A stretch of 64,000 bases of DNA from Candidatus Limnocylindrales bacterium (GCA_035604955.1 DATNHM010000056.1:22733-86732); one strand, 5' to 3'. Shown: positions 23,911-61,371, counted from the first letter of the stretch. Translations and numbers: made by a program. The notes: generated from the sequence alone by a model not told the origin.

Positions 23911-26148
<2,238 letters not shown>

Positions 26149-46635: not shown

Positions 46636-46707
46636 AAACTACCTCATCGTTGTTTAGTATTTCACAAGATTTTCTTTAAAGCGAGAAAAGAATCCGAAAG
46701 TTTCAAC

Positions 46708-46737
46708 CACGGATAGACACGGATAAACACGGATTGA
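46708..46737. repeat. 3 x 10-bp direct repeat upstream of the giant gene
   Basis: CACGGATAGA CACGGATAAA CACGGATTGA, 73-102 nt upstream of the ATG at 46635. Confidence 0.85.
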
Positions 46738-46743
46738 TTGGTA

Positions 46744-46766
46744 GGGCGGGCAGTCCCCTGCCCGCC
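46744..46766. repeat. GC-rich REP-like hairpin
   Basis: GGGCGGGCAG-tccc-CTGCCCGCC. It is followed by further small hairpins (CGTC..GACG, GCGCA..TGCGC). Confidence 0.7.
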
Positions 46767-46950
46767 GCCCGTCTGAACGCAAAAGACGGCGCGCACGGAG
46801 TGATGCGCCCTGCCTGCGAACGTTTTTGTTCTATCCGCGTGCATCTGTATCCATTTGTGGTTCAATTTGCTTTCTTCATTCGGCCCCAATCGGCTCGCGG
46901 GTACGCTCGCCCCACCAACCCTGCCAGATTGTCTTCTTTATTCTTCATTC

Positions 46951-46978
46951 AGCCTTCAGCCTTTAGCCTTTAGCCTTT
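46951..46978. repeat. heptamer array AGCCTTC AGCCTTT AGCCTTT AGCCTTT
   Basis: Read directly, 3 nt downstream (in gene orientation) of the stop of the 1454-aa gene. A weaker 7-nt periodicity (TCTTTAT TCTTCAT) continues to about 46933. Confidence 0.9.
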
Positions 46979-46981
46979 ACT

Positions 46982-49900
46982 TCAGTCGGCCGGCAAAACG
47001 TTAAACTGTTCAATCACCGCCGTGTTGTTGGTCACCGACGGTACCGTAATCCAATAGTACACGTTCGGAGCGGGATTGGTCAGAACAACACTGTTAACCC
47101 GCGTGCCATTAAAGCGCACCACGGCGCGGGTGGCCGCCTCCGCCACCACCTGATAATTCGTGACCATGCCGAAAAACGGCCCGCTGCCGGTGTAGATGCC
47201 GTTCGGCGCAGGCTTCAAGGTCTGGCCATAGCTGTAAATGACGTAGCGCGGCGTATCGCTGACGTGCAACAGCGACATCACCTGCTCCGGCAGCCACTCG
47301 TACATCTCGTCGCTGACGCCATTTACCTGTTGGACGGTATCGTTCCAGTTCAGGAACGGCGATTGCCAGGTCAATTGCGGAACGGCCAGAATATCGCCGA
47401 CATGCTCAAACGAGCCGACCAGGCCGTCCGGATTGACGAAATTGGTGCGGGTTTGATTGATGCCCGCCACCAGTTGCCCCAGAGCCGAATTCAATCCCGG
47501 CGGGCCGGCGGGATTAATCGCAAACGGGGTAAAATTCCCCAATGAGCCATTGTGTTGGTCGGGCGGGGTCAAGGACCATACAGGCTGAGCCGCCCCTTTA
47601 ATGGTCGCGTCAATTGCATTATTGGAAAGCACGATGACACCACTGAACAAAGCCGACCACGCCGCAAGTCCGGCCTGCGGCGAAGGGTTCCCGGCATCCA
47701 CATTCACCGATAATTGGCCCAGCGTGGCGTTGTTGTTGGGCGCCGCAGTGAAAATATCAAACAACAGCCGGTCCTGTGCTGGCGCAGCGTTGGCCGCGTC
47801 ATAGTATTGGCCGTTGACGGACGAGGTGAGCAGCGTGTCCCCAGTCCACTGTGCCCAAGTGTTGGTTCCGATGTAGTTCGTGGTGCTACCGCTCACCAGG
47901 GTTTGCTGAAGAATGTCCGGCGACTTGAGATAAACCGTCTGCCACGGCGTGCCGCGATGGACCCGGCCCAGCCAGCCGACCGACGGGAATTTATAACTCG
48001 GAAAATCCCAGTCATCCGACTGCCACACCAGCGGATCCTTGAGGGCCAAATTGGAGGGATTCTGGTCTTCGTTTGGCAGCCTCCAATTGCCGCCCCATGG
48101 CCGGTAACTCTGGTTCAACTGGCCAAGATTGCCGTTTGGACTGTTGGTCATCAGGCTGTCCACGTACCTATCGTACACAATGGCGCTTTCTCCGTTCAGA
48201 CCCCAATTCAAATCGCCGGCCAGGTAATGAACCAAGGGATCGTTCGCCTGCCAGGAAACGTGTTGGACGACCGCGGCCGTGGGCGTATAGGGCGCTTGGT
48301 TGGAAAGGCTCGTCTGACCGATAGCAATGGCCGTCGCTTCACCAGCGCCGTAAGGCGGAGGCGGCGTGTAACCCATAAAGGCGCTGAATCCCGCGATTTC
48401 ATTGGCAAGCTGGGTGGGAGAGGTCGTATTCCAAATACCGCTGGATGAACTGGCTGTATAAAGGCCCATGGATACACCCACTTGACTGAGAATCCCGACG
48501 GGCACCCCACTTTGATCGAAGTTCGTATTCCACAGCTCGCTTCCGCTGGCTTGAGCAGTATTGATCGGAGCGTTATAGTTGGTGATGATTTCGGAGGTCA
48601 AATCGCGGTAACTGTCCGGCCCGCTCAACTGCACGTAGTCAATCACCCGATTCGGATTAACGGTGGTATCCAACATAAACACCTGAAATTCGTTGGACGT
48701 GGTCAAAAACCAATGCGGTTGAGGATAGAGGTTGCCGTTGATGTTCACGCCCGTTTCAAAAGGCAACGCCTGATTGGTCGTCAACGAACGCGGGGGATAA
48801 GTGATCCCATTGTACGTCAGCCCATTGATGAGGTATGTCGAGTTGGTGATGACGGTGACGTTCGTATAGAGTGGAATCTGGAATGAGAGCTGGGAACCAA
48901 GCGGATCCGTCACCGGATTGTAACCGGGCCAGACATATCCAGCGGTAATTTGAAGGTTGCTGGCAATCGGGAAAGCCGGATAGTCGGCGGAGAAGCCTTC
49001 ATCGTTCGTCAGGGCCGCATGCCTTAAATTATCCCTCACATAAATGACCATGCTGTCGTTAAATGAATTGGTGTACGAATTCCAGCATTCCACGCCAAAC
49101 TGATTGGAAATGTTGAGGTTGAACATTTGATTAAAATGGTAGTCGCCGGGATTGTTGGCGTAAGTGTCATTGGTGCTCAGACGCGTGACCTGCAACTTGC
49201 GGGTCAGTTGAAAGGCGCTTTCCATGTCGAATTTGTTGAAATGCGGGAAACCTTTCTTCGCGCCAATAATCCACGGCACGCCATAGACGTTCACATTCGT
49301 GTAAACAAAAGCGGGGCCATAACCGACAGGGTTAGGCGGATCAGGAATGGGACTTATCAAATCGGTGACCTCCACCGGCAGAGCCAGTTGAGGATCGCCT
49401 GGACCCGTGACAGTCCCAAGCTCAATTTGCCCGTTGGCATCGTAGTAGGAGCCGACCGGTTCATAACCGGCGATATAAACATTGGTGAAGCCGTTCTCAT
49501 TGGTGACCCAAAACGTCGGGCGGAAAACAGACGGGAAATTAGCACCAAGTGCGAACGTATTATTTGTGGTGGCATCATAAATATTGGCGGCGAGCTGGAG
49601 GACGCGCTGAACGGCGGGGGTATAGACAAATTGGTTATCCACAAACACCGGAACGTGTGAAATGCCAAAGGGCAAGGGAATGTTCGTGGGGTTCAGCACG
49701 GGATTGGCCGCCGTACTGATGTTGGTGAAACTGCCGTAAGTCGCCACGTAGTTTGATGGGTTTGCCACCATCCATTCCTGCGAATAATCGCGCAGCATCC
49801 GGTCGGCGGCGTTGGTGAAAAATTGCAGCGGCGTCCACGGAATGAGATTCGTTTCCATGTCGGGAACGACGTTGCCGTTGGCATCCACGTTCACGTAATT

Positions 49901-51346
49901 AATGTTGAGCTTGTTCTGCTCCGGCGCGGATGCCACGCCCATCTGCGAGAGCAGCCGGTAATAGGTGTAGCGGTTATAGGTGGAAGGCCCACCGTCAGCC
50001 AAAGTCAAATGATTGGTGAAGGAGATGGAAGATTCACTCGGGTTAAACAACTCCTGCAAATCAAAAAATTGATTGGTGTTGGGAGCGCCGGCCCATGGCA
50101 GCGTGGGGTCATCCCGATTACGTCGATTACCCGCTTCGTTGATGGGCGCTGGCGTGGTTTGCAGCGGCCCGTCGCTGTATTCATCAATGTTGTCAAATGG
50201 GACAGTGCCAGACACCGGAAAATTGGGAGGCTGGTTGGCAAACAACAAATTGGCGCGCTTCAAACTCAGATAGTTGTTCTGGTAGCGATAAGCCAGCAGC
50301 GCCCGCGCGTCGTTAAAAGCCACTCCTTGGTTTTCGTAATTCGGGTAAGGTTGATTTTGATACCAATAGTATGTCACGTTGGGTGGCATGGTCGGAAGCC
50401 ATTGGTTGGTGTTCAAATCCGCAAGAAACGCGGCCAGATTGATTTCCCATGAGCCAACACCCTGATTACGCAAAAAGGAGTCGATCCCAGGTCCAAACGG
50501 AGAGGGATTCACACGAATCCGCCCATTTTGGGCCGGTTGTCCTTCGTCGCGAACCTGATTGTAAATGGCATTCAAATCCAGCGCGTTGCCGATGGGCACG
50601 GCAATAAAGGCGTAACGCGCCACAAACGGATTGTTGGGCCCGTACGGCTGGTCCGGATGTTGCAACACACCCACCCATTCCGGGTCGCCCGTTTCGGACA
50701 CGTAATTGGTCACGGGCAAGCCATCAATAATATTGACGATGGGGGAACCATTATTGCCAATTTCCGGCACCCAGCCGTTCGCGTCGTTCGTGCCATTGCG
50801 GTTCAAGTCGAGGTAGAAACGGAAATCGAGCGGGGCGTTCGGATTGGCATTGGTCTGGATGAACACCGGCGGGCGCGGGAGGTAATACAAGTTGCCCAGG
50901 TTCAATAGAAAATCGTTCAACGTCAGCGGATTTCCATTCGCATGTTCATATTGATAATTGACGTTGGTAAAGGCGGCGACGCCAGTCCAAAATCCGCTGG
51001 AATTGATGTAATTGGTCGAGACCAGGAGGCCGAAATTGTAGGGATTGGTGGTGGCGAGCGCATTGGCTACGATTTGTCCCTCGGCAGCGGCCAATGCGTC
51101 ATCGGCGGCCAATTTTGCCGAGGCGGTGTCGGTCGCGGTGGTCACCGCGCCGCGTTCACGCCGGCTGATGGCGAGGAACGTAAGGGCCATGAACGTCACC
51201 ACCGCCAGCAAAATCAGCGTGATGATCAAGGCAACGCCGTGTTGGGAGTGACGAGTGACGGGTGACGAGTGACACGAATGCGTCACGCGTGGCGCGCTGT
51301 TTTTCTCGTCACTTGTCACTCGCCACATGTCACATTTTAGTTTCAT
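46982..51346 (-). CDS. 1454-aa GspK/PilX-like protein, last gene of a four-gene minor-pseudopilin cassette
   Basis: N-terminus ...SQHGVALIITLILLAVVTFMALTFLAISRRERG is the GspK/PilX_N type hydrophobic helix without the G|F cleavage site and Glu5. A large N/T/P-rich extracellular region follows. The 4-nt overlap with the upstream gene suggests translational coupling. Confidence 0.75.
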   Translation of the reverse strand: MKLKCDMWRVTSDEKNSAPRVTHSCHSSPVTRHSQHGVALIITLILLAVVTFMALTFLAISRRERGAVTTATDTASAKLAADDALAAAEGQIVANALATTNPYNFGLLVSTNYINSSGFWTGVAAFTNVNYQYEHANGNPLTLNDFLLNLGNLYYLPRPPVFIQTNANPNAPLDFRFYLDLNRNGTNDANGWVPEIGNNGSPIVNIIDGLPVTNYVSETGDPEWVGVLQHPDQPYGPNNPFVARYAFIAVPIGNALDLNAIYNQVRDEGQPAQNGRIRVNPSPFGPGIDSFLRNQGVGSWEINLAAFLADLNTNQWLPTMPPNVTYYWYQNQPYPNYENQGVAFNDARALLAYRYQNNYLSLKRANLLFANQPPNFPVSGTVPFDNIDEYSDGPLQTTPAPINEAGNRRNRDDPTLPWAGAPNTNQFFDLQELFNPSESSISFTNHLTLADGGPSTYNRYTYYRLLSQMGVASAPEQNKLNINYVNVDANGNVVPDMETNLIPWTPLQFFTNAADRMLRDYSQEWMVANPSNYVATYGSFTNISTAANPVLNPTNIPLPFGISHVPVFVDNQFVYTPAVQRVLQLAANIYDATTNNTFALGANFPSVFRPTFWVTNENGFTNVYIAGYEPVGSYYDANGQIELGTVTGPGDPQLALPVEVTDLISPIPDPPNPVGYGPAFVYTNVNVYGVPWIIGAKKGFPHFNKFDMESAFQLTRKLQVTRLSTNDTYANNPGDYHFNQMFNLNISNQFGVECWNSYTNSFNDSMVIYVRDNLRHAALTNDEGFSADYPAFPIASNLQITAGYVWPGYNPVTDPLGSQLSFQIPLYTNVTVITNSTYLINGLTYNGITYPPRSLTTNQALPFETGVNINGNLYPQPHWFLTTSNEFQVFMLDTTVNPNRVIDYVQLSGPDSYRDLTSEIITNYNAPINTAQASGSELWNTNFDQSGVPVGILSQVGVSMGLYTASSSSGIWNTTSPTQLANEIAGFSAFMGYTPPPPYGAGEATAIAIGQTSLSNQAPYTPTAAVVQHVSWQANDPLVHYLAGDLNWGLNGESAIVYDRYVDSLMTNSPNGNLGQLNQSYRPWGGNWRLPNEDQNPSNLALKDPLVWQSDDWDFPSYKFPSVGWLGRVHRGTPWQTVYLKSPDILQQTLVSGSTTNYIGTNTWAQWTGDTLLTSSVNGQYYDAANAAPAQDRLLFDIFTAAPNNNATLGQLSVNVDAGNPSPQAGLAAWSALFSGVIVLSNNAIDATIKGAAQPVWSLTPPDQHNGSLGNFTPFAINPAGPPGLNSALGQLVAGINQTRTNFVNPDGLVGSFEHVGDILAVPQLTWQSPFLNWNDTVQQVNGVSDEMYEWLPEQVMSLLHVSDTPRYVIYSYGQTLKPAPNGIYTGSGPFFGMVTNYQVVAEAATRAVVRFNGTRVNSVVLTNPAPNVYYWITVPSVTNNTAVIEQFNVLPAD
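51246..51333. repeat. inverted heptamer arrays (GRGTGAC x4 / NNGYCAC x4)
   Basis: 51246-51273 is GAGTGAC GAGTGAC GGGTGAC GAGTGAC. 51306-51333 is TCGTCAC TTGTCAC TCGCCAC ATGTCAC. They lie in the first 100 nt of the 1454-aa ORF. Confidence 0.9.
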
Positions 51347-52371
51347 TGGTACGCCGTCTGGTCAACGTTGCGGATCACCACGCGCTGGCGGAACAGATGC
51401 ACCTGCCCGACGTGGTTCGACAAATAAGCCGTCTGCGCGTAGGCCGGCGCCACGTTGGGCAAACCTTCGGCGCGCTGGAGCGTGCTGTCTTCCAGCACCC
51501 CCAGCTCCACCTGCACCGACGCGGGCACGGTGTTGCTGTACATGTAAAAGCCAAACACACCGGGGACGGATTGCAGGAAAAAAAGCGTGTTTTGGTTGGT
51601 AAATGTATTATTTCCCCCGCTGTAATAATACTCGGCGGTGTTCGTCATTTCCAAACCATTGGGATCGTAAGGGCGCACTGTCAAATCCACCACGCCATCC
51701 ACCAAATGGCTCCAATACGCGGAATTGGTCGGTTGCGTTAAAGTTGACATAAAGGCGTTGTACAGCGAAGCGGGCAGCGCGGCTTGCACATTCGTGGTCG
51801 CATAGAAACGGTAGAGGGCATAGATGTCGTTCGTATCCGGTGGCGGCCTGTTCGCGACCACCGTATAACCCGTGCCCACCCAGGTCGGGCTGCCGCCGAT
51901 ATTTTGACGGCTCAGGCTGAAAAAGCTTTCCAGCAGGTTGGTGCGCAACTGGCTGCTGGCCGTCAACGACTGCATCAACGGCGGCGGAGCAGTAAGATAG
52001 TTTGCCAGCACAGTGTAAAAATTGAAGTTATTGTTCGTGTTGAGATTGTCCGCGTAATTCCCGTATTTCCAAAGGCTATTAGTGTTAACCGGGCTTGAAG
52101 ATGGCGTCATGGCTTCGAGATCGCTGGTGATCAGGCCCATGGCCAGGCGGCCGGATTCGAGAATATCGGTCTGGGTGAGGCTGGCGCGAAAGGCCTTCTG
52201 GGTGCTGTTGAAGACCGTCATCAGCGCCAGCACGATAAGCGACAGCAAGGCCAGCGTCACCAGCATCTCGACCAGAGTGAAGCCAGCGCAAGTAAAGGCC
52301 AAAGGCTGAAGGCTGAAGGCTGAAACCTCCTTTCGCTCCTGACGCATTATTTTTATTTTAGACTTTAGCAT
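51343..52371 (-). CDS. prepilin-type protein (GspJ/PilW-like minor pseudopilin), 342 aa
   Basis: ...SAFSLQPLAFTCAG|FTLVEMLVTLALLSLIVLALMTVF. An alternative start MRQERKEV lies at 52347. Confidence 0.75.
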   Translation of the reverse strand: MLKSKIKIMRQERKEVSAFSLQPLAFTCAGFTLVEMLVTLALLSLIVLALMTVFNSTQKAFRASLTQTDILESGRLAMGLITSDLEAMTPSSSPVNTNSLWKYGNYADNLNTNNNFNFYTVLANYLTAPPPLMQSLTASSQLRTNLLESFFSLSRQNIGGSPTWVGTGYTVVANRPPPDTNDIYALYRFYATTNVQAALPASLYNAFMSTLTQPTNSAYWSHLVDGVVDLTVRPYDPNGLEMTNTAEYYYSGGNNTFTNQNTLFFLQSVPGVFGFYMYSNTVPASVQVELGVLEDSTLQRAEGLPNVAPAYAQTAYLSNHVGQVHLFRQRVVIRNVDQTAYQ

Positions 52372-52384
52372 TTAGCCTTTAGCT
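52295..52384. repeat. inverted heptamer arrays (AAGGCYG x4 / TTTAGNN x4)
   Basis: 52295-52322 is AAGGCCA AAGGCTG AAGGCTG AAGGCTG. 52357-52384 is TTTAGAC TTTAGCA TTTAGCC TTTAGCT. Confidence 0.9.
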
Positions 52385-52390
52385 TTTTCT

Positions 52391-53383
52391 TCATGGCGCG
52401 CTGGTGAACGTTTGCGGCTGGAAAAAATACAACCACTCTTTGTTATTGTAATCGCCGGTTTGAACCATTTGACCGGCGACCGATGTCCGGAATGTCTGGC
52501 GGCCATTGCCCGGGGCGCCGTTGGGCAGCAACGGCCAGAGGAACGTGAACCGCAGTTCACGCAGGTTGGAGGTGAGTTGCTGAGCTGGGGAACCCAGCAC
52601 CACCCATGGAGCAGAAGGCTGCCTTGGATTTTTACCGGTATTGGCAGCAGTTGCCCGCCAGGTAAGCCCAGCCCAGTAAACCTCGTCTCCAGCCTTGTAC
52701 TGCGTGGCCACTTGCCAAATCGGCGGGATGTAAACCGCCACCGGCACATTCTGACAAATCATCTTGTAGCTGAAGGAGTCACTGCGAATAATATCATTGT
52801 CCTGTGGCGGTTTTTCCACTGCCGGCCCGCTGAGAGAACGAACGTAAACGACCACGTAATTGCTGATGCCGCCTTCGACCAGATTGAGAATGGGCGCGCC
52901 GTTGCCCTGGTTGATATATTCCGGTGTGCTGAGCAACCCGATGATGTTCATGCCGTTGGTAAGGGGCGCGCCGGGCGGCGTACCGGCGGTCGGATACTTT
53001 GGAGCGATAGTGAAATTGGTGTAAGTATAACTGTTCACTCCGGGTTGAGGCAAAGCACCGATGGTCGGGTAGTACGCCCAGTAATTCGTGATCGCCAGAA
53101 CGTAATTGGTCAGGTCATCCAGGCCGCGTGCGCCGTTGCGGATGTTTTCGATGAACACGGTGGCGTCCTGGCCAATCAAGGTCTCCTCGCGATTGTCCTT
53201 CTGGACGTTGAGGCCGGCGGGCAGCACGCCGATGATGGCCACCAGCGCAATGCCGATGATGGCCAGGCAAATGGCAATCTCCACCATGGTAAAGCCGGCA
53301 CAGGCAAAGGCTGAAGGCTGAAGGCCGAAGGCTAAAACCTTTTCCCGCGCCCAGCGCGCATCCATTGTTTTAGAATTTAGCAT
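52391..53383 (-). CDS. prepilin-type protein (GspI/PilV-like minor pseudopilin), 330 aa
   Basis: ...LAFGLQPSAFACAG|FTMVEIAICLAIIGIALVAIIGVLP. An alternative start MDARWAREK lies at 53365. Confidence 0.75.
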   Translation of the reverse strand: MLNSKTMDARWAREKVLAFGLQPSAFACAGFTMVEIAICLAIIGIALVAIIGVLPAGLNVQKDNREETLIGQDATVFIENIRNGARGLDDLTNYVLAITNYWAYYPTIGALPQPGVNSYTYTNFTIAPKYPTAGTPPGAPLTNGMNIIGLLSTPEYINQGNGAPILNLVEGGISNYVVVYVRSLSGPAVEKPPQDNDIIRSDSFSYKMICQNVPVAVYIPPIWQVATQYKAGDEVYWAGLTWRATAANTGKNPRQPSAPWVVLGSPAQQLTSNLRELRFTFLWPLLPNGAPGNGRQTFRTSVAGQMVQTGDYNNKEWLYFFQPQTFTSAP

Positions 53384-53403
53384 TTAGACTTTATCCTTTT
53401 AGT
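53307..53403. repeat. inverted heptamer arrays (AAGGCNN x4 / TTTANNN x5)
   Basis: 53307-53334 is AAGGCTG AAGGCTG AAGGCCG AAGGCTA. 53369-53403 is TTTAGAA TTTAGCA TTTAGAC TTTATCC TTTTAGT. Confidence 0.9.
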
Positions 53404-53404
53404 G

Positions 53405-54301
53405 TCATTGCAATTTCGGTTCTCTCAGCGTCGCGCGGCCGGTCAGCGGGTCAATGTCAATGAGGTTGTAGGCGTTCGTGCTGTTGCCCAGCGGAGCTTC
53501 ATAAACCTGCGGCGACCGGAGCTGAAACGTCTTGGTGGCCGGGTCCACCGCCGGCAACAGGCTGCCACGCGCCAGCGGGATGTATTCATGTTGGGAGGCC
53601 ACGGTCTGCCCGTCATCCGTCAACTGGCCGAGGTAGTTGAAGGCGATGTAAGGCAGATAAAAAGGGGAGCCAAAGGCGGGAGTGTTCGTTTCCGCGGGAA
53701 ACGGAATGGTGTTGGTGTAAGCAAAGGGATAAATCGAGAAAAATTTTGTGGGATCAATTGGATCTTTGAATTGGTAAGGCTGGGTGGGCTGATAAAATTT
53801 CCATTGGGCGATAAACGTGCCGTCGGGCAGCGACTGCCAGGGGGCGAGATAGTGCCATTGGTGGTTTCCGGGCTGATCGCCCACCGCGCCGAGAGCGGCA
53901 AACGTGTAACCGGTCAGTTGCTTGTCGCACAGATTGGTCGTGGCGGGCAGGGCCTGTAGCGCCGCGGACAGGTTGTTGTTCCAAAAATTCGCCGGGACGA
54001 AAACCATATAAACCGTGGTGCGCTGGCTGATGGCCAGTTGGCGGGCACGCGCGACGTCGTTGAGCATCTGCTGGTCGGCGGCGGTCATGGCGTCCGCGTG
54101 GCCGAAGTTTTTGAGCGCCGGCACGGCCAACGCCGCCAGCAGGGCCATGATGCTCAACACAATCAGCATCTCGACCAGGGTAAAAGCCCGGCGGGTGACG
54201 GGTGACGGGTGACGGGTGACAAGACACGGGACGCGGGCACACACAGCACTGGCTGCCCGGCTCTCGACACTCGACACTCGACACTCGACACTCATAATCA
54301 T
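53405..54301 (-). CDS. prepilin-type protein (GspH/FimT-like minor pseudopilin), 298 aa
   Basis: MIMSVECRVSSVESRAASAVCARVPCLVTRHPSPVTRRA|FTLVEMLIVLSIMALLAALAVPAL...DVARARQLAISQRTTVYMVF. Confidence 0.75.
   Translation of the reverse strand: MIMSVECRVSSVESRAASAVCARVPCLVTRHPSPVTRRAFTLVEMLIVLSIMALLAALAVPALKNFGHADAMTAADQQMLNDVARARQLAISQRTTVYMVFVPANFWNNNLSAALQALPATTNLCDKQLTGYTFAALGAVGDQPGNHQWHYLAPWQSLPDGTFIAQWKFYQPTQPYQFKDPIDPTKFFSIYPFAYTNTIPFPAETNTPAFGSPFYLPYIAFNYLGQLTDDGQTVASQHEYIPLARGSLLPAVDPATKTFQLRSPQVYEAPLGNSTNAYNLIDIDPLTGRATLREPKLQ
54193..54297. repeat. paired heptamer arrays (GGGTGAC x4 / CTCGACA x4-5)
   Basis: 54193-54220 is four perfect GGGTGAC units. 54263-54297 is CTCGACA x4 plus CTCATAA. 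The arms are only partly complementary (about 5 of 7 positions). Confidence 0.9.
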
Positions 54302-55164
54302 TGCCAGCTCAGAATGTTGTCTTTGTTGGCGCCCGTGTTGGCACTGGCATTGGGATCCACCTTCCCATCCGGCCCGGCCGACCAGACCATTACGTTGCCG
54401 TGGAACCGGAAATTGTCGGCGGTGCCATCGGGATCAATCAAACCGTTTAGTCCCGGATTCGAATTTCCACTCGGACCTGACACGGCTGACAAGCTGTAAA
54501 AGGCGTCCTTTGCCTGATTGTCCGCATTCACGTCCAGGGTGATGACGTAGGGATTTTTCCACGGATCGCGATAAACCAGATCCGGCCCCACGCCCGGCAG
54601 ATTCGGAGCACTGACCATTTTGGCGTTCAGGAAAACGGTTTGCTGGGGGTTCTTTTGGTGGTTTTGGTTGACCGCAGTCACCGTGGTGTTGGTGATGTCC
54701 ATCAAAATGGCGATGACTTCCGAATTGTTGGTATTATAGGTGACTGCCGGAGGATTCAGCAGGTTGAATTTGGCATTCGCCACGCCATTGGTCCCGTAGG
54801 TGAAACTCCCGCCATTTGCTGACGCCGCGTTCTGCGCCAGGCTGGAAACCGGCATGCGGCTGTAGGTCGAATCATAATTCTGAATGGCCGTGACGAGGTC
54901 GCTGATTTGCAACTGCGCCTGCCTCTTCTGCGCTTGCAGTTTGGCTGCCGACAGGGCCGGCAACAGCATGGCCGCCAGAATGGCGATGATCGCGATGACC
55001 GTCAGCAATTCCACAATGGTAAAAGCCCGCCTTCGTTCCACTCCGGCGCGGCAAGCGTGACGGGTGACGGGTGACGCGTGGCACGAAAAGTCGGCGCGCG
55101 CTTCGTGTTTAATCTCGCCACTCGTCACCTGCCACCCGTCACGTTTTATCATTTTGGTTTTCAT
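54298..55164 (-). CDS. GspG/PulG-like major (pseudo)pilin, 289 aa
   Basis: MKTKMIKRDGWQVTSGEIKHEARADFSCHASPVTRHACRAGVERRRA|FTIVELLTVIAIIAILAAMLLPALSAAKLQAQKRQAQLQISDLVTAIQNYDSTYSRMP. The start at 55164 is preferred to the ORF-track 55389, whose extra 75 aa cover repeat-filled intergenic DNA. Confidence 0.75.
   Translation of the reverse strand: MKTKMIKRDGWQVTSGEIKHEARADFSCHASPVTRHACRAGVERRRAFTIVELLTVIAIIAILAAMLLPALSAAKLQAQKRQAQLQISDLVTAIQNYDSTYSRMPVSSLAQNAASANGGSFTYGTNGVANAKFNLLNPPAVTYNTNNSEVIAILMDITNTTVTAVNQNHQKNPQQTVFLNAKMVSAPNLPGVGPDLVYRDPWKNPYVITLDVNADNQAKDAFYSLSAVSGPSGNSNPGLNGLIDPDGTADNFRFHGNVMVWSAGPDGKVDPNASANTGANKDNILSWQ
55055..55142. repeat. inverted heptamer arrays (GNGTGRC x4 / NNGYCAC x4)
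   Basis: 55055-55082 is GCGTGAC GGGTGAC GGGTGAC GCGTGGC. 55115-55142 is TCGCCAC TCGTCAC CTGCCAC CCGTCAC. Confidence 0.9.
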
Positions 55165-55201
55165 AGGTTTGAAAAAGTGTTGTGCCGGGAATGTTGAAGC
55201 C

Positions 55202-55288
55202 GGAAGGGAGAAGGAGGAAACACTCCGCGAACGATTGAACCCGGCCAAATCGTTTCTGTCTTCTGCCTTCCGCCTTCCGCCTTCCGTT
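55202..55288. repeat. purine run GGAAGGGAGAAGGAGGAAACA facing heptamer array TTCTGCC TTCCGCC TTCCGCC TTCCGTT
   Basis: 55202-55222 and 55261-55288, read directly. GGAAGG and CCTTCC cores are complementary. It is intergenic, between the two GspG-like genes. Confidence 0.8.
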
Positions 55289-55467
55289 CCAACCGCACCA
55301 CCAGGCGCGGACGCCACGCGCGGTCGTGCCATTGAACCGGAATCGGAAGGGAGCGGAGCGCGGGCGGCCCGCCCGCGAGTTCCGGGCACGGCTTCGCGCG
55401 GACGAGCCGTCCGCGCTCCTGCGGCGGCGGGGTCAACCGGATGTTGTCGGCGTTGCGCATAAAAAAC

Positions 55468-56226
55468 TCAGGGCACCGAGTTGTTGTTGAGCTGCACCGA
55501 TTTGGTCCAGTTGCAGATGAGGTTGGTATTCCCGGCAATTTCGAGTTGAATCCACAAGTCATACGAGCCGGGATTGTTGGTTCCGGGATAGGCGTAACGC
55601 CAGGGGTTCACGCCGGAGTTGGCATTTCCCAGCGGATTGTAGCTGTTATCCGGTCCGCCGGAAGGAGTGACCAGGAGGTTGACCGGTGTGCCGCCGACCG
55701 TTACCTTGGAAATTTGATTGGTGTTCAGGTCCGGCAGAAAATTTCGGGCCGGTTGCGCGGATTCGTCGCCGCCGGGTTTGGCGCAATTCATGAAGCCACC
55801 CACCCCCGACCCAAACACGGTACCCAACGAGGCTGCGGGAATCGTGGCGGTGTGGTCCAGGGTCATGTAGTTGCCATTGGTCGGAATGGTCCCTGCCAGT
55901 TCATAATACAATTGGTTGGTCAAGGGACCATTGGGACAGGCCGGCGGATAAAAACCGTAGGCGGATTTGTACTGTTCCAGCGCGGTCTGCAACTGCGACA
56001 TCTGGGCCTGGGCGTTGTGAATAAACGCCTGCCGCCGCACCGCGCTGCCCACCGGCAGAATGAGCGCGGCAATCACGGCAATGACAGCAATGACCGTCAG
56101 CAGTTCAATCAGGGTAAAAGCCAACGGGTGACGGGTGACGGGTGACGGGTGACGAGCATACCCAGAACCCGCCACGTTTGTCTCGTCACGCGTCACTCGC
56201 CACTTGTCACAGTTGTTCGTTTTCAT
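55468..56226 (-). CDS. GspG/PulG-like major (pseudo)pilin, 252 aa
   Basis: MKTNNCDKWRVTRDETNVAGSGYARHPSPVTRHPLA|FTLIELLTVIAVIAVIAALILP...QMSQLQTALEQYKSAYGFYP. Confidence 0.8.
   Translation of the reverse strand: MKTNNCDKWRVTRDETNVAGSGYARHPSPVTRHPLAFTLIELLTVIAVIAVIAALILPVGSAVRRQAFIHNAQAQMSQLQTALEQYKSAYGFYPPACPNGPLTNQLYYELAGTIPTNGNYMTLDHTATIPAASLGTVFGSGVGGFMNCAKPGGDESAQPARNFLPDLNTNQISKVTVGGTPVNLLVTPSGGPDNSYNPLGNANSGVNPWRYAYPGTNNPGSYDLWIQLEIAGNTNLICNWTKSVQLNNNSVP
56126..56210. repeat. inverted heptamer arrays (GGGTGAC x4 / NNGYCAC x4)
   Basis: 56126-56153 is four perfect GGGTGAC units. 56183-56210 is TCGTCAC GCGTCAC TCGCCAC TTGTCAC. Confidence 0.9.
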
Positions 56227-56498
56227 CGTTCACGCACTTCGTGTTCCATTCGTTCGCTGAGCCACTGCTTGATCATGCTCTGGTAATTCAAGTAACGCGA
56301 CCGCGCCAGGCGTTTGATGCGCGCCAGCATCCGCGGGTCCATGCGCAACGTGATGGTCACGGACTCGGCGGATTCGGCGCTGCTGGCCACGGCCGCGTCC
56401 ATCAGGCGCAGGTCCGGCCGGTTCTCCGCCCAAAAGTCCGCCTCGGCGTCTTCGGTGTCGAAGAGCGGGACTTCTTCCCATCTGGCAAATGTTCGCAT
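56223..56498 (-). CDS. brnA: BrnA-like (CopG/RHH-type) antitoxin
   Basis: MRTFARWEEVPLFDTEDAEADFW...SVTITLRMDPRMLARIKRLARSRYLNYQSMIKQWLSERM. Start taken at the Met after the heptamer array. The stop overlaps the ATG of the next pilin gene (ATGA). Confidence 0.6.
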   Translation of the reverse strand: MRTFARWEEVPLFDTEDAEADFWAENRPDLRLMDAAVASSAESAESVTITLRMDPRMLARIKRLARSRYLNYQSMIKQWLSERMEHEVRER

Positions 56499-56500
56499 AA

Positions 56501-56589
56501 CTGTGACCTGTGACCTGTGACGAGTGACGTGATTTTCACGCCCGCGATTCGCCAACCATTCGCGTCACTCGTCACCCGTCACTTTTCAC
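56501..56589. repeat. inverted heptamer arrays (CTGTGAC x3 + GAGTGAC / NYGTCAC x3 + TTTTCAC)
   Basis: Arrays at 56501-56528 and 56562-56589. They span the brnT stop and the brnA 5' region. Confidence 0.9.
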
Positions 56590-56875
56590 CCGCGCTCAGT
56601 GTCTGGTCCATTTTCCGCTGGTAAAAGAACCGTTCTTCCGGCTCGAACGGGCGCGCCAACAAGACGCGCACCAGCCGCCCATTGGCCCGGTACACGCTGA
56701 AAATGCCGATGCCACCCGCCGACATGCCCAGGTTGAAAAAGCGCGCCTGCACGCCAAATCGCGGCGAGTCCGGCAGCAGCCGGATGGCAAACGGGTCTTC
56801 AAAGGACTCTTCAATTTCCAACGGAGTCAAAGAACCATCCGTTGCAAACGGCGGATTATTCCAATCAAACTCCAT
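56579..56875 (-). CDS. brnT: BrnT-like (DUF497) toxin
   Basis: MEFDWNNPP...LTPLEIEESFEDPFAI...FSVYRANGRLVRVLLARPFEPEERFFY matches the BrnT pattern (F.WD...FEE...F.DP......R.ISAR.A...ER..Y). It lies directly upstream of a BrnA-like gene. Confidence 0.6.
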   Translation of the reverse strand: MEFDWNNPPFATDGSLTPLEIEESFEDPFAIRLLPDSPRFGVQARFFNLGMSAGGIGIFSVYRANGRLVRVLLARPFEPEERFFYQRKMDQTLSAGEK

Positions 56876-56921
56876 AACGAGCTAACTGTAAATAACACGC
56901 CCATGCAATGTGTTTACAATG

Positions 56922-56951
56922 TATTTACGCATGGATGCTGTTCTTTGTCAA
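56922..56951 (-). promoter_or_regulatory. candidate sigma70-type promoter for brnTA
   Basis: On the minus strand: TTGACA (56951-56946), an 18-nt spacer, then TAAATA (56927-56922), about 47 nt upstream of the brnT ATG. The surrounding DNA has GTAAATA/TATTTAC and CATGC/GCATG inverted repeats that could be an operator. Confidence 0.3.
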
Positions 56952-56997
56952 CGGTTTTTTTCGAACCGGAGCGAAATGGCTTTGGACCAGTCAATTA

Positions 56998-58308
56998 TCA
57001 GTCCCCGCCGCTGCCGCCGCTGCCGGACAGGTTGCTGATCATGGCAATCAACGGCAGGAACATGGCGATGACGATGCTGCCCACAATGACGGCCAGAAAG
57101 ATGATCATGATGGGCTCCAGCAGGGAAGTCATGGCCGACACGGCATTGTCCACTTCTTCATCGTAGTTGTCGGCAATGCGCAGCAGCATTTCCGGCAGGG
57201 CGCCGGTCTGTTCACCGACGTCCACCATGCTGACGACCATGGGCGGAAAGACCCCGGAACCTTCCAACGGCGCGGTGATGGTCTCGCCTTCCTTGACGGC
57301 CTCATGGACCGCGCCGACGGCGTTGGCGATGATGACGTTCCCGGCGGTTTCCTTGACAATGGTCAGCGCCTGCAAAATCGGAACGCCGCTGCTGACGAGC
57401 GTGCCGAGGGTGCGGGTGAAGCGGGCGATGGCCACCTTGTTGATGACCGGGCCCAGGACCGGAACTTTCAATTTGAACTTGTCCCAGACGTGCCGGCCGA
57501 TTTTGGTCCGGATGATCAGCATAAACACCACCACGAAGGCCGCGACACAGATGGAGGTTACGAAGAAGTGATCCTTGACGGCGGAACTGACCGCCAGCAC
57601 AAAGAGGGTGAATTTCGGCATCTTGACATTCATGCCTTCAAAGACCCCCTGAAACCTCGGGATCACAAACGTCAGCAGCAGGATCATGATGCCCGTCGCC
57701 ACGATGAGCACGGCGATCGGATAAAACATCGCCGCCTTGACCTTGCCCTTGATCTTCTGCGCCTTTTCGGAAAATTCCGCCAGGCGTTTCAGCACCACTT
57801 CCAGCACGCCGCCCAGTTCGCCGGCCTTGACCATGTTGACGAAGAGGCGGTTGAAAACCCTGGGATGCTGCGCGAGCGCCTCGGAAAACGTGCTGCCGCC
57901 TTCGATCGCGAGCGCCAGCTCGCCGAGAATGCCCCGGAGGGTGGCGTTGCGCTCCTGTTTTTCGAGCACGCGCAAACCGCGCAGGAGCGGCAAACCCGCG
58001 TCCACCAGCGTGGCCAACTGGCGCGTGAACGTCGTCAACACCTTCGGCTTTACCCGGCCGCTCAGTCCGGGAATTTTGATCTGGATATCGAGCGCGCCCC
58101 CCCGCTTTTTGCCGCCGCCGGCCCGGGGCGCTGCCTTGCTCTTCTTCCGCGTGATTTTTTCCTGCGGTTTTTCGGCCTCGACAATTTTGGTCGGGAAGAA
58201 ACCCATTTCCTTGACGCGGCCAATGGCCTCGTTCTGGCTGGCGACTTCGATCGTGCCTTTGGTTTCTTTGCCGTGCGCATCCAGCGCCACGTAACTATAT
58301 TTCGGCAT
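56998..58308 (-). CDS. pilC: type IV pilus / T2SS platform protein (PilC/GspF family)
   Basis: 436 aa. MPKYSYVALDAHGKETKGTIEVASQNEAIGRVKEMGFFP, two T2SSF repeats, and three TM segments. Confidence 0.9.
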   Translation of the reverse strand: MPKYSYVALDAHGKETKGTIEVASQNEAIGRVKEMGFFPTKIVEAEKPQEKITRKKSKAAPRAGGGKKRGGALDIQIKIPGLSGRVKPKVLTTFTRQLATLVDAGLPLLRGLRVLEKQERNATLRGILGELALAIEGGSTFSEALAQHPRVFNRLFVNMVKAGELGGVLEVVLKRLAEFSEKAQKIKGKVKAAMFYPIAVLIVATGIMILLLTFVIPRFQGVFEGMNVKMPKFTLFVLAVSSAVKDHFFVTSICVAAFVVVFMLIIRTKIGRHVWDKFKLKVPVLGPVINKVAIARFTRTLGTLVSSGVPILQALTIVKETAGNVIIANAVGAVHEAVKEGETITAPLEGSGVFPPMVVSMVDVGEQTGALPEMLLRIADNYDEEVDNAVSAMTSLLEPIMIIFLAVIVGSIVIAMFLPLIAMISNLSGSGGSGGD

Positions 58309-58319
58309 AAACTAAAACA

Positions 58320-58409
58320 GTCCCCGGTCCCCGGTCTCCAGTCCCCCGTCAAAGGACCGCGAACGCTGCGGACTCGACTGTGGACTGCGGACTGTGGACT
58401 GCGGACTCA
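58320..58409. repeat. inverted heptamer arrays (GTCCCCG-type x4 / GGACTGY x6)
   Basis: 58320-58347 is GTCCCCG GTCCCCG GTCTCCA GTCCCCC. 58368-58409 is GCGGACT CGACTGT GGACTGC GGACTGT GGACTGC GGACTCA in 7-nt register. The region is intergenic, between the second ATPase gene and pilC, with the last 3 nt overlapping the ATPase stop codon (58407-58409). Confidence 0.9.
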
Positions 58410-60110
58410 TGTATATTTGACGATTTCCTCAATAGTGGTATCACCTTCAAAAATACCGCGCAAGCCGTCTTCGCGCAAGGTCACCATCCCCAGCTCGACG
58501 GCTTTCTGGCGCACCACCACCGTCGGCGCGCGTTCATTGATCAGGGTCCGAATCGCCTCGCTGATGATGAGCAATTCGAAGATGCCCTTCCGGCCCTTGT
58601 AACCGGTGTCGTTACAGGTGGAACAGCCGCGGCCATAATGAAAAACCTTGTCGCCCAGGTCGTGCGGCGAAAGATTCAACAGGCCCAGTTGTTCCTCCGT
58701 CGGTTCGAACGGCGTCCGGCAATTCGAGCAGATGGTCCGGACCAGCCGCTGGGCCAGCACCGCCATCAAGGTCGAGGAAATCAGAAACGGCTCGACCCCC
58801 ATGTCCAGCAGGCGCGTCACCGCGCCCGGCGCGTCATTGGTGTGCAACGTGCTCAAGACCAGGTGGCCGGTCAGCGACGCCTGGATGGAAATCTGCGCCG
58901 TTTCCAGGTCGCGCATTTCCCCCACCATGATAATGTCCGGGTCCTGGCGCAAGAACGACCGCAACGCCTTGCCGAACGTCATGCCCGCCGCCTCGTTGAT
59001 GGCCACTTGCATAATGCCCTCGATGTCATATTCCACCGGGTCTTCGGCGGTGAGCAGTTTGGAATCAAGGGTATTGATGCGCCGCAGACAGGAATAGAGC
59101 GTCGTGGTTTTGCCGGAACCGGTCGGGCCGGTCACAATCATGATGCCGTTGGGACGTTGAATCGCCTCGGTGACATAATCGTGCACGTATTTGGGGAAGC
59201 CGAGTGTTTCAATGTCCAGGTTGACCGCCGCGCGGTCGAGCACGCGCAACACGACCGATTCGCCGAACTGGGTCGGCAGCGTGGAGACGCGCAAATCAAT
59301 CTGCCGGTTGGCCATGGGGAAATTGATGCGCCCGTCCTGCGGCAGCCGCTTTTCGGAAATATTCAGGCCGGACATGACCTTGATGCGCGAAATCACCGGC
59401 AGGGCGAGGTGTTTCGGCGGGGGCGACATTTCATAGAGGGCGCCGTCCACGCGGTAACGGATGCGGAACTCGGTTTCAAACGGCTCGAAATGAATGTCAC
59501 TGGCGCGGTCCTGGATGGCCTGGAACAGGACCAGATTCACAAATTTCACGATGGGCGCCTGGTTGGCCAGGTCTTCGGCCAGCTTCGCGTCATCGGCGGC
59601 TTCGCTCGCTTCGCGGGCGATTTCGGCATCCTCACCCAGTTCCTTGAGAATCGCGGAGACGTCCCCCGTTTCCTCCTGGCCGTAATGCTGGTCAATCGCC
59701 TTTTGAATGTCGGCGGGGTCGGCCACCACCACCTGCACGTCCTTTTTGACCGCGAAATGGATTTCGTCCGGCCGCCCCGGGTCGAGCGGGTCGGCCAGCG
59801 CCACCTGCACCGTGCCGTCGTGGGCGGCGACCGGCAGGCACTGATACATGCGCGCGACATTGGCCGGAATCGTCTGTAACAACTCGGGCGTAAATTGGAC
59901 ATCGCGCAGGGAGATGACCCTGGTGCCCAGATAATTCGCCATCACCTGCAGGATGTCGTCGAGCTGCATGATCCCGAAATCCTGGAGCAGATGAATGACC
60001 GGCGTGCCGCTGCGTTTGAATTCGGCGGCGACCTCCTCGTACTGCAGGTCGTCAATCAACCCCAGTTCTTTGACGAGGGACAGCAACGGATTGGAAACTT
60101 CTTCGGCCAT
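58407..60110 (-). CDS. pilB: GspE/PilB-family secretion/assembly ATPase (copy 2)
   Basis: 567 aa. N-terminal T2SSE_N-like domain, Walker [11 protein letters not shown], Asp/His boxes ([17 protein letters not shown]), and the tetracysteine CSNC...CSTC. Confidence 0.9.
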
Positions 60111-60122
60111 TTTATCAAAATA

Positions 60123-61241: not shown

Positions 61242-61250
61242 AAAATTTCA

Positions 61251-61369: not shown

Positions 61370-61371
61370 AA

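Follow-up and report, generated by a model that had tools for sequence, protein, structure and literature searches.

Inverted heptanucleotide arrays in the long prepilin leaders of a secretion/pilus-like gene cluster: a probable junction hairpin in a permissive leader

In the 64,000-nt stretch of DNA analysed here (the window, or W), whose host is probably one of the Verrucomicrobia subdivision 3 / Limisphaerales-like soil and peat bacteria, we found six pilin-like proteins with leaders that are unusually long because each contains two 7-base tandem repeats in palindromic arrangement, set within the reading frame. The reading we favor, at a probability of roughly 60%, is that the leader is a permissive, cleaved-off host of a junction hairpin element. 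To judge from their reading frames, the long leaders are real, translated sequence.

Results

The six proteins are encoded on the minus strand, from 56226 to 46982, in a type II secretion / type IV pilus-like cluster comprising five prepilin-type genes and a GspK-like gene. Leaders are measured between the first in-frame ATG and the Phe codon.

55468-56226, minus strand: 252-aa GspG-like prepilin gene (ORF, motif, Pfam N_methyl); leader 36 aa, Phe codon 56116-56118
54298-55167, minus strand: 289-aa prepilin gene, the 289-aa form of this ORF (ORF, Pfam); leader 47 aa, Phe codon 55024-55026
53405-54301, minus strand: 298-aa prepilin gene (ORF, Pfam); leader 39 aa, Phe codon 54182-54184
52391-53383, minus strand: 330-aa prepilin gene (ORF); leader 30 aa, Phe codon 53291-53293
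51343-52371, minus strand: 342-aa prepilin gene (ORF, Pfam); leader 30 aa, Phe codon 52279-52281
46982-51346, minus strand: 1454-aa GspK-like gene, its ATG overlapping the preceding stop (ATGA); hairpin-encoded N-terminus of 37 aa before G/VALIITL

All six leaders (30-47 aa) consist of two heptamer arrays and a loop, and almost nothing else. Pfam N_methyl matches all five prepilins; the score of the 252-aa protein equals the curated cut-off, and that of the 330-aa protein falls short of it. Leader lengths, motifs and ORFs of the five prepilin genes are as the initial annotation described them, as are the periodic peptides HPSPVTRHP, SAFSLQPLAF and LAFGLQPSAF and, on the plus strand, the two pilins at 29165 and 29634, which have leaders of 15 and 21 aa and lack arrays. 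The ATG of the 252-aa gene (56224-56226) overlaps the CopG gene stop (ATGA), and its leader ends in ...RHPLA; that of the 298-aa gene (54299-54301) likewise overlaps the preceding stop (CAATGA), and that of the 289-aa gene (55165-55167) is marked by the conserved context TTCAAACCTATGAAAAC. The 342-aa gene starts within the 5' arm (ATG 52369-52371). Start codons had been proposed in the hairpin loops, but these are not conserved: in L015 (labels of this kind denote sequences of relatives) the 330-aa gene has ACG in place of its loop ATG, and it is instead the ATG at 53381-53383, within the 5'-arm unit CTAAATG, that is conserved (W, L015, L016, L007). The ATG at 51328, placed in or at the edge of the loop of the 1454-aa gene, actually lies inside the 5' arm.

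The elements within or overlapping the leaders are as follows, with fold z-scores for the whole region.

56124-56212, minus strand: leader hairpin, 252-aa gene; fold z -3.5, arms z -6.7
55053-55146, minus strand: leader hairpin, 289-aa gene; fold z -5.1, arms z -7.6
54192-54293, minus strand: leader hairpin, 298-aa gene; fold z -2.7, arms z -2.6
53307-53402, minus strand: junction element, 330-aa gene; fold z +0.4, arms z -2.2
52302-52387, minus strand: junction element, 342-aa gene; fold z -1.7, arms z -4.8
51246-51333, minus strand: leader hairpin, 1454-aa gene; fold z -4.7, arms z -5.8

In the 252-aa gene, a 5' arm of GTGACAA GTGGCGA GTGACGC GTGACGA (56182-56210), with TGG where TGA would stand in frame, faces four copies of GTCACCC (56124-56156) across a 25-nt loop. 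The GTGAC/GTCAC-type arms of the 289-aa gene are 30 nt each and 87% complementary; those of the 1454-aa gene are of the same type, with an in-frame TGG at ATG TGG CGA. The 298-aa gene pairs 4.4 copies of GAGTGTC, a variant of GGGTGAC without the stop, with 4.1 copies of GTCACCC, at about 5 of 7 positions per unit. In the 330-aa gene, the 5' arm consists of CTAAAGN units with TAA stops directly after the preceding stop and is mostly untranslated, while the 3' arm (AGCCTTC x3.9) is translated, and the two pair weakly; the units of the 342-aa gene are GCTAAAG / CAGCCTT x3.3.

Period-7 arrays are far beyond chance: strict runs in the window number 10 at period 7 and 0-2 at each other period from 4 to 12, and in the window plus relatives (358 kb) 84 at period 7 and at most 19 at others. 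Arrays range from 2.6 to 6.9 units, mostly 3-5. Compared with shuffled arms, each of the nine arm pairs in the cluster shows stronger pairing (z -2.2 to -7.6), by the smallest margin in the 330-aa (z -2.2) and 298-aa (z -2.6) genes. Among ten GTGAC-type hairpins, four 5-bp helices are common to all and a sixth pair covaries (AU in 5, GC in 3, GU in 2). At least eight unit families have complementary arms; only the 7-nt units recur among hairpins, and the loops are unrelated.

The same kind of repeat pair also occurs at most gene junctions of the secretion/pilus cluster, so that the elements are not specific to pilins.

56499-56592, minus strand: untranslated junction hairpin, toxin/CopG; fold z -4.4 (whole region)
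58318-58408, minus strand: untranslated junction hairpin, GspE/GspF; units GTCCGCA / GGGGACY
61249-61368, minus strand: untranslated junction hairpin, GspE2/PilT-like; units GAAGGCA / CGCCTTC
55195-55290, minus strand: untranslated array in the 240-nt gap following the 252-aa gene; CGGAAGG x4.7 (55254-55286) and a CCTTC-rich partner that is complementary in part
46948-46979, minus strand: lone array AAAGGCT x4.6, beginning 2 nt past the 1454-aa gene stop; a partner arm was sought and none found

The common layout of a gap is a stop, 0-12 nt, an arm, a loop, the other arm, 2-12 nt and an ATG, the last spacer being 9-12 AU-rich nt at most junctions. At toxin/CopG, the 98-aa gene ends within the first GTGAC unit (stop 56579-56581), and the 3' arm ends 2 nt upstream of the CopG antitoxin ATG (56496-56498). 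The GspE/GspF hairpin spans the gap from the GspE stop (58407-58409) to the GspF ATG (58306-58308), leaving an AU-rich 9-nt spacer upstream of the latter, and the third hairpin is flanked by the stop codon (61372-61374) of the second GspE-like ATPase and by the ATG (61239-61241) of the PilT-like gene.

As the initial annotation proposed, the arrays are, by the evidence of their frames, translated in the pilin frame as part of the long leaders. Of about 35 array-bearing leaders, 34 keep the frame open across the arrays despite differing unit sequences, and in GTGRC units the TGR is TGG in 9/9 cases when in frame, as against 6/26 (with TGA in 20/26) when out of frame (Fisher p = 7e-5). An ATGA/GTGA stop-start overlap is in frame with the Phe codon in 16 of 24 array-bearing genes (p = 9e-4), and the start codon (MKT..., often overlapping the preceding stop as ATGA) is conserved also in array-free relatives; where arrays are present, it lies upstream of or within the distal arm. 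Alternatively, the arrays could be 5' UTR, the true start being a GTG, TTG or non-canonical codon near the motif and the leaders ordinarily short. Candidate codons lie 2 (TTG, 252-aa), 6 (GTG, 289-aa) and 7 (TTG, 342-aa) codons before the Phe, and in L024 gene calling cut several of these genes short. Both TTGs had been recognized before; the accompanying claim that four of the five genes lack a GTG after the proximal array holds except for the 289-aa gene, whose in-frame GTG (M-ERRRA/F) was overlooked. However, the 298-aa and 330-aa genes have no such codon, ATG, GTG and TTG are all absent between the proximal array and the Phe codon in about 30 of 36 array-bearing leaders, the avoidance of in-frame stops in the distal arm is significant, and the MKT start is held in frame with its upstream context. 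We consider an annotation artefact very improbable.

Comparison with relatives shows that the position and architecture of the elements are conserved while their sequence turns over. Array-free relatives (L001, L002, L009 and L011) have the same operon with leaders of 13-21 aa, MKT...RRA followed by FT(L/I)(I/V)E; array-bearing relatives share this start context and carry differing heptamer units inserted in frame. The GspE/GspF junction has an array hairpin in W, L028, L009 and L014, with differing units, and the GspE2/PilT-like hairpin is wholly replaced in L028, where the flanking genes are 93-95% identical. GC-rich palindromes unrelated to the arrays lie in frame in the leaders of L018, L009, L004, L016 and L015.

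Among the 120 best homologues, the leader exceeds 26 aa in 112 (median 37 aa, interquartile range 36-41, maximum 68) and ends in Ala in 110, with an MKT-type start called upstream of both arms in nearly all. The narrow length range, and a W-x-V-T...H-x-S-x-V-T pattern recurring in many orthologues, might be taken to mean that the leader is selected as a peptide, such as a regulatory pro-piece for pilin processing or targeting. This too seems highly unlikely: the conserved positions track the 7-nt DNA period rather than codon positions, the nucleotide core TCAC being retained in every codon phase; the residues between them change radically (P/V/A, R/C/F), giving peptides such as HPSPVTRH, HVSRVTCH and HVSRFTFH; three unrelated peptide types interchange among orthologues 72-77% identical; and the same DNA elements also occur untranslated.

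The initial annotation suggested that gain or loss of one 7-nt unit frameshifts the pilin, making the arrays contingency loci for stochastic ON/OFF expression of pilus subunits. The unit length is not a multiple of three, the arrays lie inside translated sequence, and unit number differs between species (GTCACCC, 4 in W vs about 6 in L019); the CTCTT repeats in the opa signal peptide are a precedent, as are the neuO heptanucleotide repeats. Nevertheless, unit number is unchanged in four independent near-identical metagenome contigs (JGI 3300010379, 3300000567 and 3300009700; SRR6193119), so that five assemblies from different samples, the window included, have identical arrays with 0 indels in 17 kb, and no out-of-frame allele was found among the short-read assemblies examined. 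Frames are broken only in L028, where GspF is split too, making assembly error likely. The arrays are short, and identical ones lie in untranslated gaps, where frame is irrelevant. We regard contingency loci as improbable, and conclude that the element is probably not primarily a phase-variation device.

Discussion

In the reading we favor, this lineage carries hairpin elements consisting of two inverted arrays, each of 3-5 heptanucleotide units, that flank a loop of 25-45 nt; in this cluster, most stop codons are followed by one. Where an intergenic gap is present, the element fills it exactly; at pilin genes, the stop/start overlap (ATGA) places it within the ORF that follows, as part of its class III leader peptide. 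Because that leader stays cytoplasmic and is cut off by prepilin peptidase, its sequence would be nearly free; its shortening is harmless in some systems (PMC4471445). Selection would then act only to purge stops from the units, by putting TGG for TGA or by changing the unit throughout an array, as with GAGTGTC for GGGTGAC, and to hold the net length at a multiple of three.

At about even odds, we infer that the element works as nucleic acid, in the form of a junction hairpin, which would hold the upstream stop beside the downstream start and occlude the start region, thereby making each cistron's translation depend on that of the preceding one, and/or would stabilize segments of the mRNA. A functionless, tolerated passenger is nearly as likely as such a function. 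The same operon functions array-free in L001, L002 and L011, which counts against function, and the weak arm pairing in the 330-aa and 298-aa genes counts against a hairpin function.

One could tentatively regard the arrays as passengers through and through, arising and spreading by polymerase slippage and by template switching that corrects palindromes, or else by some mobile mechanism, and surviving where harmless, in intercistronic gaps and cleavable leaders. Consistent with this, some relatives lack them in the same operon, unit families turn over fast, lone arrays and GC-rich palindromes occur in frame in unrelated enzymes, and heptamer over-representation elsewhere in bacteria has been ascribed to slippage (PMC4692102). 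Sense RNA folds no better than antisense, which folds better in 23 of 35 leaders (p = 0.03); nothing therefore marks the mRNA as the strand under selection, and an origin at the DNA level, or through mutation alone, would fit just as well. However, 11 of the 13 array clusters in the window, and all four inverted pairs found by repeat scan, fall in the 14.5-kb gene cluster; arrays are concentrated 18-fold there, while about 20 other same-strand junctions carry only one. Corresponding junctions in divergent genomes are occupied by different units, most of the 120 orthologues, down to 50% identity, retain the pilin-1 leader hairpin, and the arms of that hairpin are identical in W and L028 despite a 7% difference in the genes around it. 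On balance, we think passengers possible but not probable.

The closest known repeats are start-codon heptamers, namely TAACTGA in Beggiatoaceae, cyanobacteria and Bacteroidetes, GGGAATC in Xanthomonas, and those of Nostoc/Calothrix, usually present in 2-6 copies (about 4 in Xanthomonas), with translational regulation proposed as their function (PMC4679880, PMC4692102, bioRxiv 10.1101/2022.06.06.494920). They share the 7-nt unit and a concentration in intergenic DNA, within a few nt of starts. They are only occasionally inverted pairs and belong to one family per genome, whereas the arrays described here have many unit families, regular inverted arms forming a hairpin, and in-frame positions within translated prepilin leaders. 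Literature searches found no report of such arrays in Verrucomicrobia. Rickettsia palindromic elements are likewise palindromic, in frame and translated, leaving the host protein intact, but are families of conserved sequence of about 150 bp whose conserved peptide stays in the mature protein (PMC10969869). Here, in contrast, the arrays vary in sequence and the peptide is removed by prepilin peptidase.

The opa CTCTT and E. coli K1 neuO repeats resemble these arrays in having a unit not divisible by 3 in the 5' coding or leader region. Such loci have long, visibly polymorphic tracts, with OFF alleles common, unlike the 3-5 units here, which do not vary among near-identical strains, are always in frame and occur in non-coding sequence too. 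REP/BIME/REPIN elements are hairpin repeats between co-transcribed genes that in some E. coli operons have an established part in stabilizing the mRNA or in differential expression, and they share the intercistronic position. REPs are many near-identical copies of one sequence linked to RAYT transposases, in contrast to the recurrence of 7-nt units only.

The leaders otherwise resemble class III prepilin signal peptides, with a hydrophilic leader, F-T-L-[IV]-E with Glu5, a hydrophobic helix and Pfam N_methyl. Published leaders are 6-26 aa (about 15-30 aa in type IVb) and in bacteria invariably end in Gly (PMC4471445), unlike the 30-47 aa and predominant terminal Ala found here. Lone in-frame arrays also lie inside a DUF255 enzyme and the TsaE C-terminus, a pattern suggestive of a mutational process that acts across the genome, and unrelated enzymes contain in-frame GC-rich palindromes as well.

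Results

The minus strand from 56226 down to 46982 carries five genes with the prepilin motif [GA]|F-T-[LM]-[IV]-E (the 252-, 289-, 298-, 330- and 342-aa genes, the first being pilin 1), followed by a 1454-aa GspK-like gene. Each of the five prepilin proteins has a Pfam N_methyl match (E 5e-6 to 6e-4), three scoring above the cut-off, one exactly at it and the 330-aa protein below it, and all five contain FT[LM][IV]E, in keeping with class III / type IV pilin-like proteins, in which the cleavage/methylation motif leads into some 21 hydrophobic residues with Glu at +5. Further upstream, this strand also encodes two GspE-type ATPases (the second here GspE2), a PilT-like ATPase and a GspF-type platform protein, as well as a small toxin-like gene with a CopG-type antitoxin as its partner. 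This 98-aa gene and its partner head the pilin operon (56223-56875), with a sigma-70-like TTGACA-N17-TAAAT upstream at about 56925-56953 (by eye) and the CopG stop overlapping the ATG of the first pilin; the pair occupies equivalent positions in six relatives (L002, L003, L007, L009, L014 and L028). A total of 14 genomes and 9 metagenome contigs yielded orthologous operons. The metagenome-assembled genomes that encode the nearest relatives of the 1454-aa protein are labelled Verrucomicrobiia or Verrucomicrobia subdivision 3, and homologues of the first pilin carry the label Limisphaerales. Further along, a 10-nt tandem repeat (CACGGATAAA, 2.7 copies, 46708-46734) sits in the 350-nt gap upstream of a 3066-aa subtilisin/LamG-like gene.

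The leader lengths in the initial annotation are exact: 36, 47, 39, 30 and 30 aa in the 252-, 289-, 298-, 330- and 342-aa genes, and two plus-strand pilins have leaders of 15 and 21 aa without arrays, as it had claimed. The five long leaders, ending in Ala in three genes and Gly in two, thus depart from the hydrophilic, Gly-ended leader of 6-26 aa that has been described for prepilins (PMC4471445). In the best 120 of 2622 homologues of the 252-aa pilin (E<=1e-10), the median leader is 37 aa, with 112 leaders longer than 26 aa and 110 ending in Ala.

The window contains 10 strict period-7 runs versus 0-2 at any other period between 4 and 12, and 358 kb of the window and related loci contain 84 versus at most 19 at any other period, the over-representation of tandem units in at least about three copies that marks a heptanucleotide simple sequence repeat. 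Copy number ranges from 2.6 to 6.9, mostly 3-5 units. The arrays occur as inverted pairs, forming hairpins with a 5' (distal) arm, a loop and a 3' (proximal) arm, and all nine arm pairs in the cluster pair better than shuffled arms (z -2.2 to -7.6); whole-region folds of the GTGAC/GTCAC hairpins reach z -3.5 to -5.1, and those of the 330- and 342-aa genes are weak. Ten GTGAC hairpins have four 5-bp helices in common, with a covarying sixth pair, and arms are complementary in at least eight unit families. The 43 canonical units can be grouped into some 4-5 super-families (AAATCG-, GTCAC-, AAGGC- and TCGAG-like) that recur across genomes; instead of one dominant unit per genome, in the style of TAACTGA or GGGAATC, several are present in the window alone. 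With respect to mobile palindromes of the REP, REPIN or MITE kind, which come as many near-identical full-length copies with target-site duplications and a transposase, arms recur here and loops are unrelated, 64 kb of this genome being covered. An Rfam scan of 46-62 kb gave no family match, only sub-threshold chance matches to eukaryotic miRNA hairpins. Sense RNA has no folding advantage over antisense, which folds slightly better, and we accordingly dropped G-U pairs as a general proof of RNA-level function; that argument holds only where TGA has been replaced by TGG. An automated measure of start-codon-to-stem distance was also abandoned as too noisy, because it included outer flanking pairs.

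The architecture is not a pilin feature, for untranslated gaps between neighbouring genes are filled in the same way:

58407 (GspE stop) to 58308 (GspF ATG), minus strand, untranslated hairpin gap
61372 (GspE2 stop) to 61241 (PilT-like ATG), minus strand, untranslated hairpin gap
56579 (98-aa gene stop) to 56498 (CopG ATG), minus strand, untranslated hairpin gap

They share one layout: stop, 0-12 nt, arm, loop, arm, 2-12 nt, ATG, the last spacer being AU-rich and 9-12 nt long at GspE/GspF and GspE2/PilT-like and 2 nt long at toxin/CopG. No Shine-Dalgarno motif is visible by eye at these junctions. Nearly all of 63 array clusters fall after the stop of one gene and no further than the first ~100 nt of the gene that follows, between genes and close to start codons as is usual for such repeats. 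In the window, 11 of 13 clusters and all four inverted pairs from the repeat scan lie within the 14.5-kb gene cluster, and among about 20 other same-strand junctions there is a single array only, at TsaE/TsaB. It lies at 28185-28260, within the sequence that encodes the C-terminus of TsaE and shortly ahead of the TsaB-like gene that overlaps it, where ATTTACG units with a partial AAATCG partner are read as IYDLRFAIDDL. A lone array of AATCGGC (4.7 copies, 24578-24610), for which no partner arm was found, encodes 11 residues in frame within a 745-aa protein:

23911-26148, minus strand, DUF255/thioredoxin-like ORF

Position outlasts sequence at these junctions. The GspE/GspF junction holds an array hairpin in the window and in L028, L009 and L014, with different units in each. 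Contig L028 is 93-95% identical to the window in nucleotides over the genes from the ATPases to pilin 1, and within that stretch its GspE2/PilT-like hairpin has been wholly replaced (CAACATC/GTTCGAT versus GAAGGCA/CGCCTTC), its GspE/GspF hairpin has drifted with four units kept, its toxin/CopG hairpin has a shifted paired core and a shorter loop, and its pilin-1 leader hairpin is unchanged except for two SNPs in the loop. Over 46000-64000 the contig is a mosaic, 93-95% identical across the ATPases, GspF, toxin/antitoxin and pilin 1 and only 72-76% identical across pilins 2-5 and the 1454-aa gene, which suggests recombination or fast evolution of the minor pilins. The pilin-1 leader is 100% identical between the two and the whole protein 82%.

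In the pilin genes, comparison of orthologues shows that the arrays are translated as leader sequence, with predicted peptides such as DETNVAGSGYAR. Array-free genomes (L001, L002, L009 and L011) have leaders of 13-21 aa, for example MKTILPSAGRRRA|FTIVE; array-bearing relatives retain this start along with the nucleotides around it (for example TTCAAACCYATGAAAAC), and between this start and the cleavage site their leaders are repeat-encoded, by in-frame heptamer arrays of very different sequence. The alignment that the initial annotation had called for bears out its reading of the leaders as array-encoded. The pilin frame is open across the arrays in 34 of ~35 of the 36 array-bearing leaders, and about 30 of the 36 lack ATG, GTG or TTG from the last array to the Phe codon that follows the cleavage site. 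Counts of open frames have little discriminating power by themselves, since array units lack stops whichever way they are read (the +1 frame is open in 19 and the +2 frame in 23 of ~35 leaders), and two other tests were used in their place. The first is non-circular: three or more GTGACNN units must show TGA once per frame. Over the 160 nt that precede the Phe codon, 9 of 9 units have TGG as their in-frame TGR, and TGA is kept in 20 of 26 out-of-frame units (Fisher p=7e-5), so the distal arm is read in the pilin frame; TGG retains a G-U pair with GUCAC. The entire distal array of the 298-aa gene is now GAGTGTC, without stops in any frame. The second test concerns array-bearing genes in which an ATG or GTG overlaps the upstream stop (ATGA, GTGA): in 16 of 24, this start shares the frame of the Phe codon (p=9e-4), and most of the rest start a few nt away.

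What is conserved in these leaders is nucleotides rather than peptide, because in homologues of the 252-aa pilin conserved positions track the 7-nt DNA period, with the core TCAC kept in all codon phases, and the residues between them vary radically (HPSPVTRH, HVSRVTCH, HASRVTRH, HVSRFTFH).

The loop ATG and GTG codons proposed as starts are not conserved, that of the 330-aa gene being ACG in L015. The 330- and 342-aa genes keep instead an ATG within the 5'-arm unit CTAAATG, in the window and in L015, L016 and L007; the remainder of that arm contains TAA stops and is untranslated. The four other genes (252-, 289-, 298- and 1454-aa) start upstream of both arms, the start overlapping the upstream stop in all but the 289-aa gene. 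GTG had been reported absent between array and motif in four of the five prepilin genes; an in-frame GTG six codons before the Phe codon of the 289-aa gene had been missed, and there the long form is still favoured by conservation around the upstream ATG and by a TGG in frame in the distal arm. Automatic gene calling shortens several of these genes or misses the N_methyl domain. On contig L024, the called start lies past the cleavage motif in the 298-aa gene (giving 254 aa), on the loop ATG in each of the 330- and 342-aa genes and past the hairpin in the 1454-aa gene, so that public annotations of this pilin family are inconsistent at the N-terminus:

51229, 52347, 53365 and 54169 (window coordinates), starts called in L024

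A 7-nt unit, not a multiple of three, within translated sequence is the configuration of a contingency locus, and a slipped-strand ON/OFF switch had been proposed on that ground. In Neisseria opa genes, repeats in the signal-peptide coding region switch expression, and phase-variable heptanucleotide repeats are described for neuO. The proposed switch finds no counterpart in the near-identical contigs, which have neither repeat-number polymorphism nor OFF alleles and are 99.9-100% identical to the window without indels:

L024, JGI 3300010379, 17,003 nt, 9 SNPs and 0 indels versus the window
L025, JGI 3300000567, 2,944 nt, 100% identical to the window
L026, SRR6193119, 952 nt, no indels versus the window
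L027, JGI 3300009700, 952 nt, no indels versus the window

With the window these make five assemblies from different samples with identical arrays, and no out-of-frame allele was found among the short-read assemblies examined. Broken pilin frames occur in L028 only, which we rejected as evidence of OFF alleles: GspF is also split on that contig, and indel errors are likely. Unit numbers do vary between species, always with the frame restored, which points to slippage over evolutionary time with frameshifted variants purged; a low-rate phase switch, though improbable, may operate. An A-to-T SNP at 49234 (L024 position 19075) changes AAA (Lys in ...HFNKFDME...) to TAA in L024, splitting the 1454-aa gene into calls of 665 aa and more than 747 aa; it is either a natural nonsense polymorphism or a sequencing error.

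Discussion

Taken comparatively, these observations define a junction hairpin element by its conserved place and shape, its sequence turnover and its complementary arms across at least eight unit families. Because pilin stops and starts overlap, the leader is the only room for it. That the hairpin acts is something we infer, and we regard a cis-acting role as evenly poised. In its favour are the persistent occupancy of the same junctions, the enrichment in this gene cluster and the identity of the pilin-1 arms between L028 and the window despite 7% flanking divergence. One could envision the base of the hairpin drawing stop and start together and masking either the surroundings of the start codon or the stretch directly after it, such that each cistron would depend on translation of the preceding one; the hairpin could also protect upstream mRNA segments.

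Alternatively, the arrays may be passenger repeats, a somewhat less likely reading with several points behind it: array-free relatives run the same operon, sense RNA folds no better than antisense, and lone arrays sit in frame in the DUF255 enzyme and TsaE. A more far-reaching reading, to which we give a probability of roughly 0.35, is that inverted heptamer-array hairpins may constitute a previously undescribed class of junction element in Limisphaerales-like Verrucomicrobia, conserved in position and architecture and not in sequence, which would enforce translational coupling and/or segmental mRNA stability across the pilus/secretion operon and would be dual-coded as prepilin leaders, RNA elements first and peptides second.

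Heptamer repeats have been reported as over-represented in some bacteria and as clustering beside initiation codons (TAACTGA in Beggiatoaceae, cyanobacteria and Bacteroidetes, GGGAATC in Xanthomonas, several in Nostoc), typically in 2-6 copies, occasionally inverted and without established function (PMC4679880, PMC4692102, bioRxiv 10.1101/2022.06.06.494920). Our literature search found no report of heptamer repeats or long prepilin leaders in Verrucomicrobia. What is new is a combination of traits, of which the same search found no description: throughout a large uncultured lineage, the arrays are regularly paired as inverted arms, draw on many unit families, keep a fixed stop/start geometry and reside in frame in prepilin leaders. 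Repeats long noticed and never explained thereby gain a system with a strong comparative signal, in which arms are paired, the geometry of the junction is fixed and sequence turns over while position stays constant.

For prepilins, the accepted leader (6-26 aa, Gly at -1) would widen to 30-68 aa and Ala-ended in an apparently large family of uncultured soil Verrucomicrobia. The prepilin leader is cytoplasmic and is cut off, and certain systems tolerate its shortening (PMC4471445); Rickettsia offers a precedent for palindromes inserted in frame (PMC10969869). The present leaders, predicted to be cleaved by a prepilin peptidase, show that such a leader can be a safe harbour for nucleic-acid elements. 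Unrelated GC-rich palindromes at the same leader positions in L018, L009, L004, L016 and L015 confirm that the leader is a permissive host. Palindromes of ~130 nt (-87 to -103 kcal/mol) lie in frame in pilin leaders of 63-80 aa in L018 (8118 and 10166) and L004 (8224), the two L018 copies being nearly identical within one operon. The window itself holds two GC-rich REP-like palindromes, one at 25175-25246 (GGAGGGACGAG...CTCGTCCCTCC, 27-nt arms, 89% complementary) in frame inside the DUF255 ORF and one intergenic at 35571-35622 (GTAGGGACG...CGTCCCTGCC); similar palindromes were seen by eye inside pilin leaders of L014, L021 and L009.
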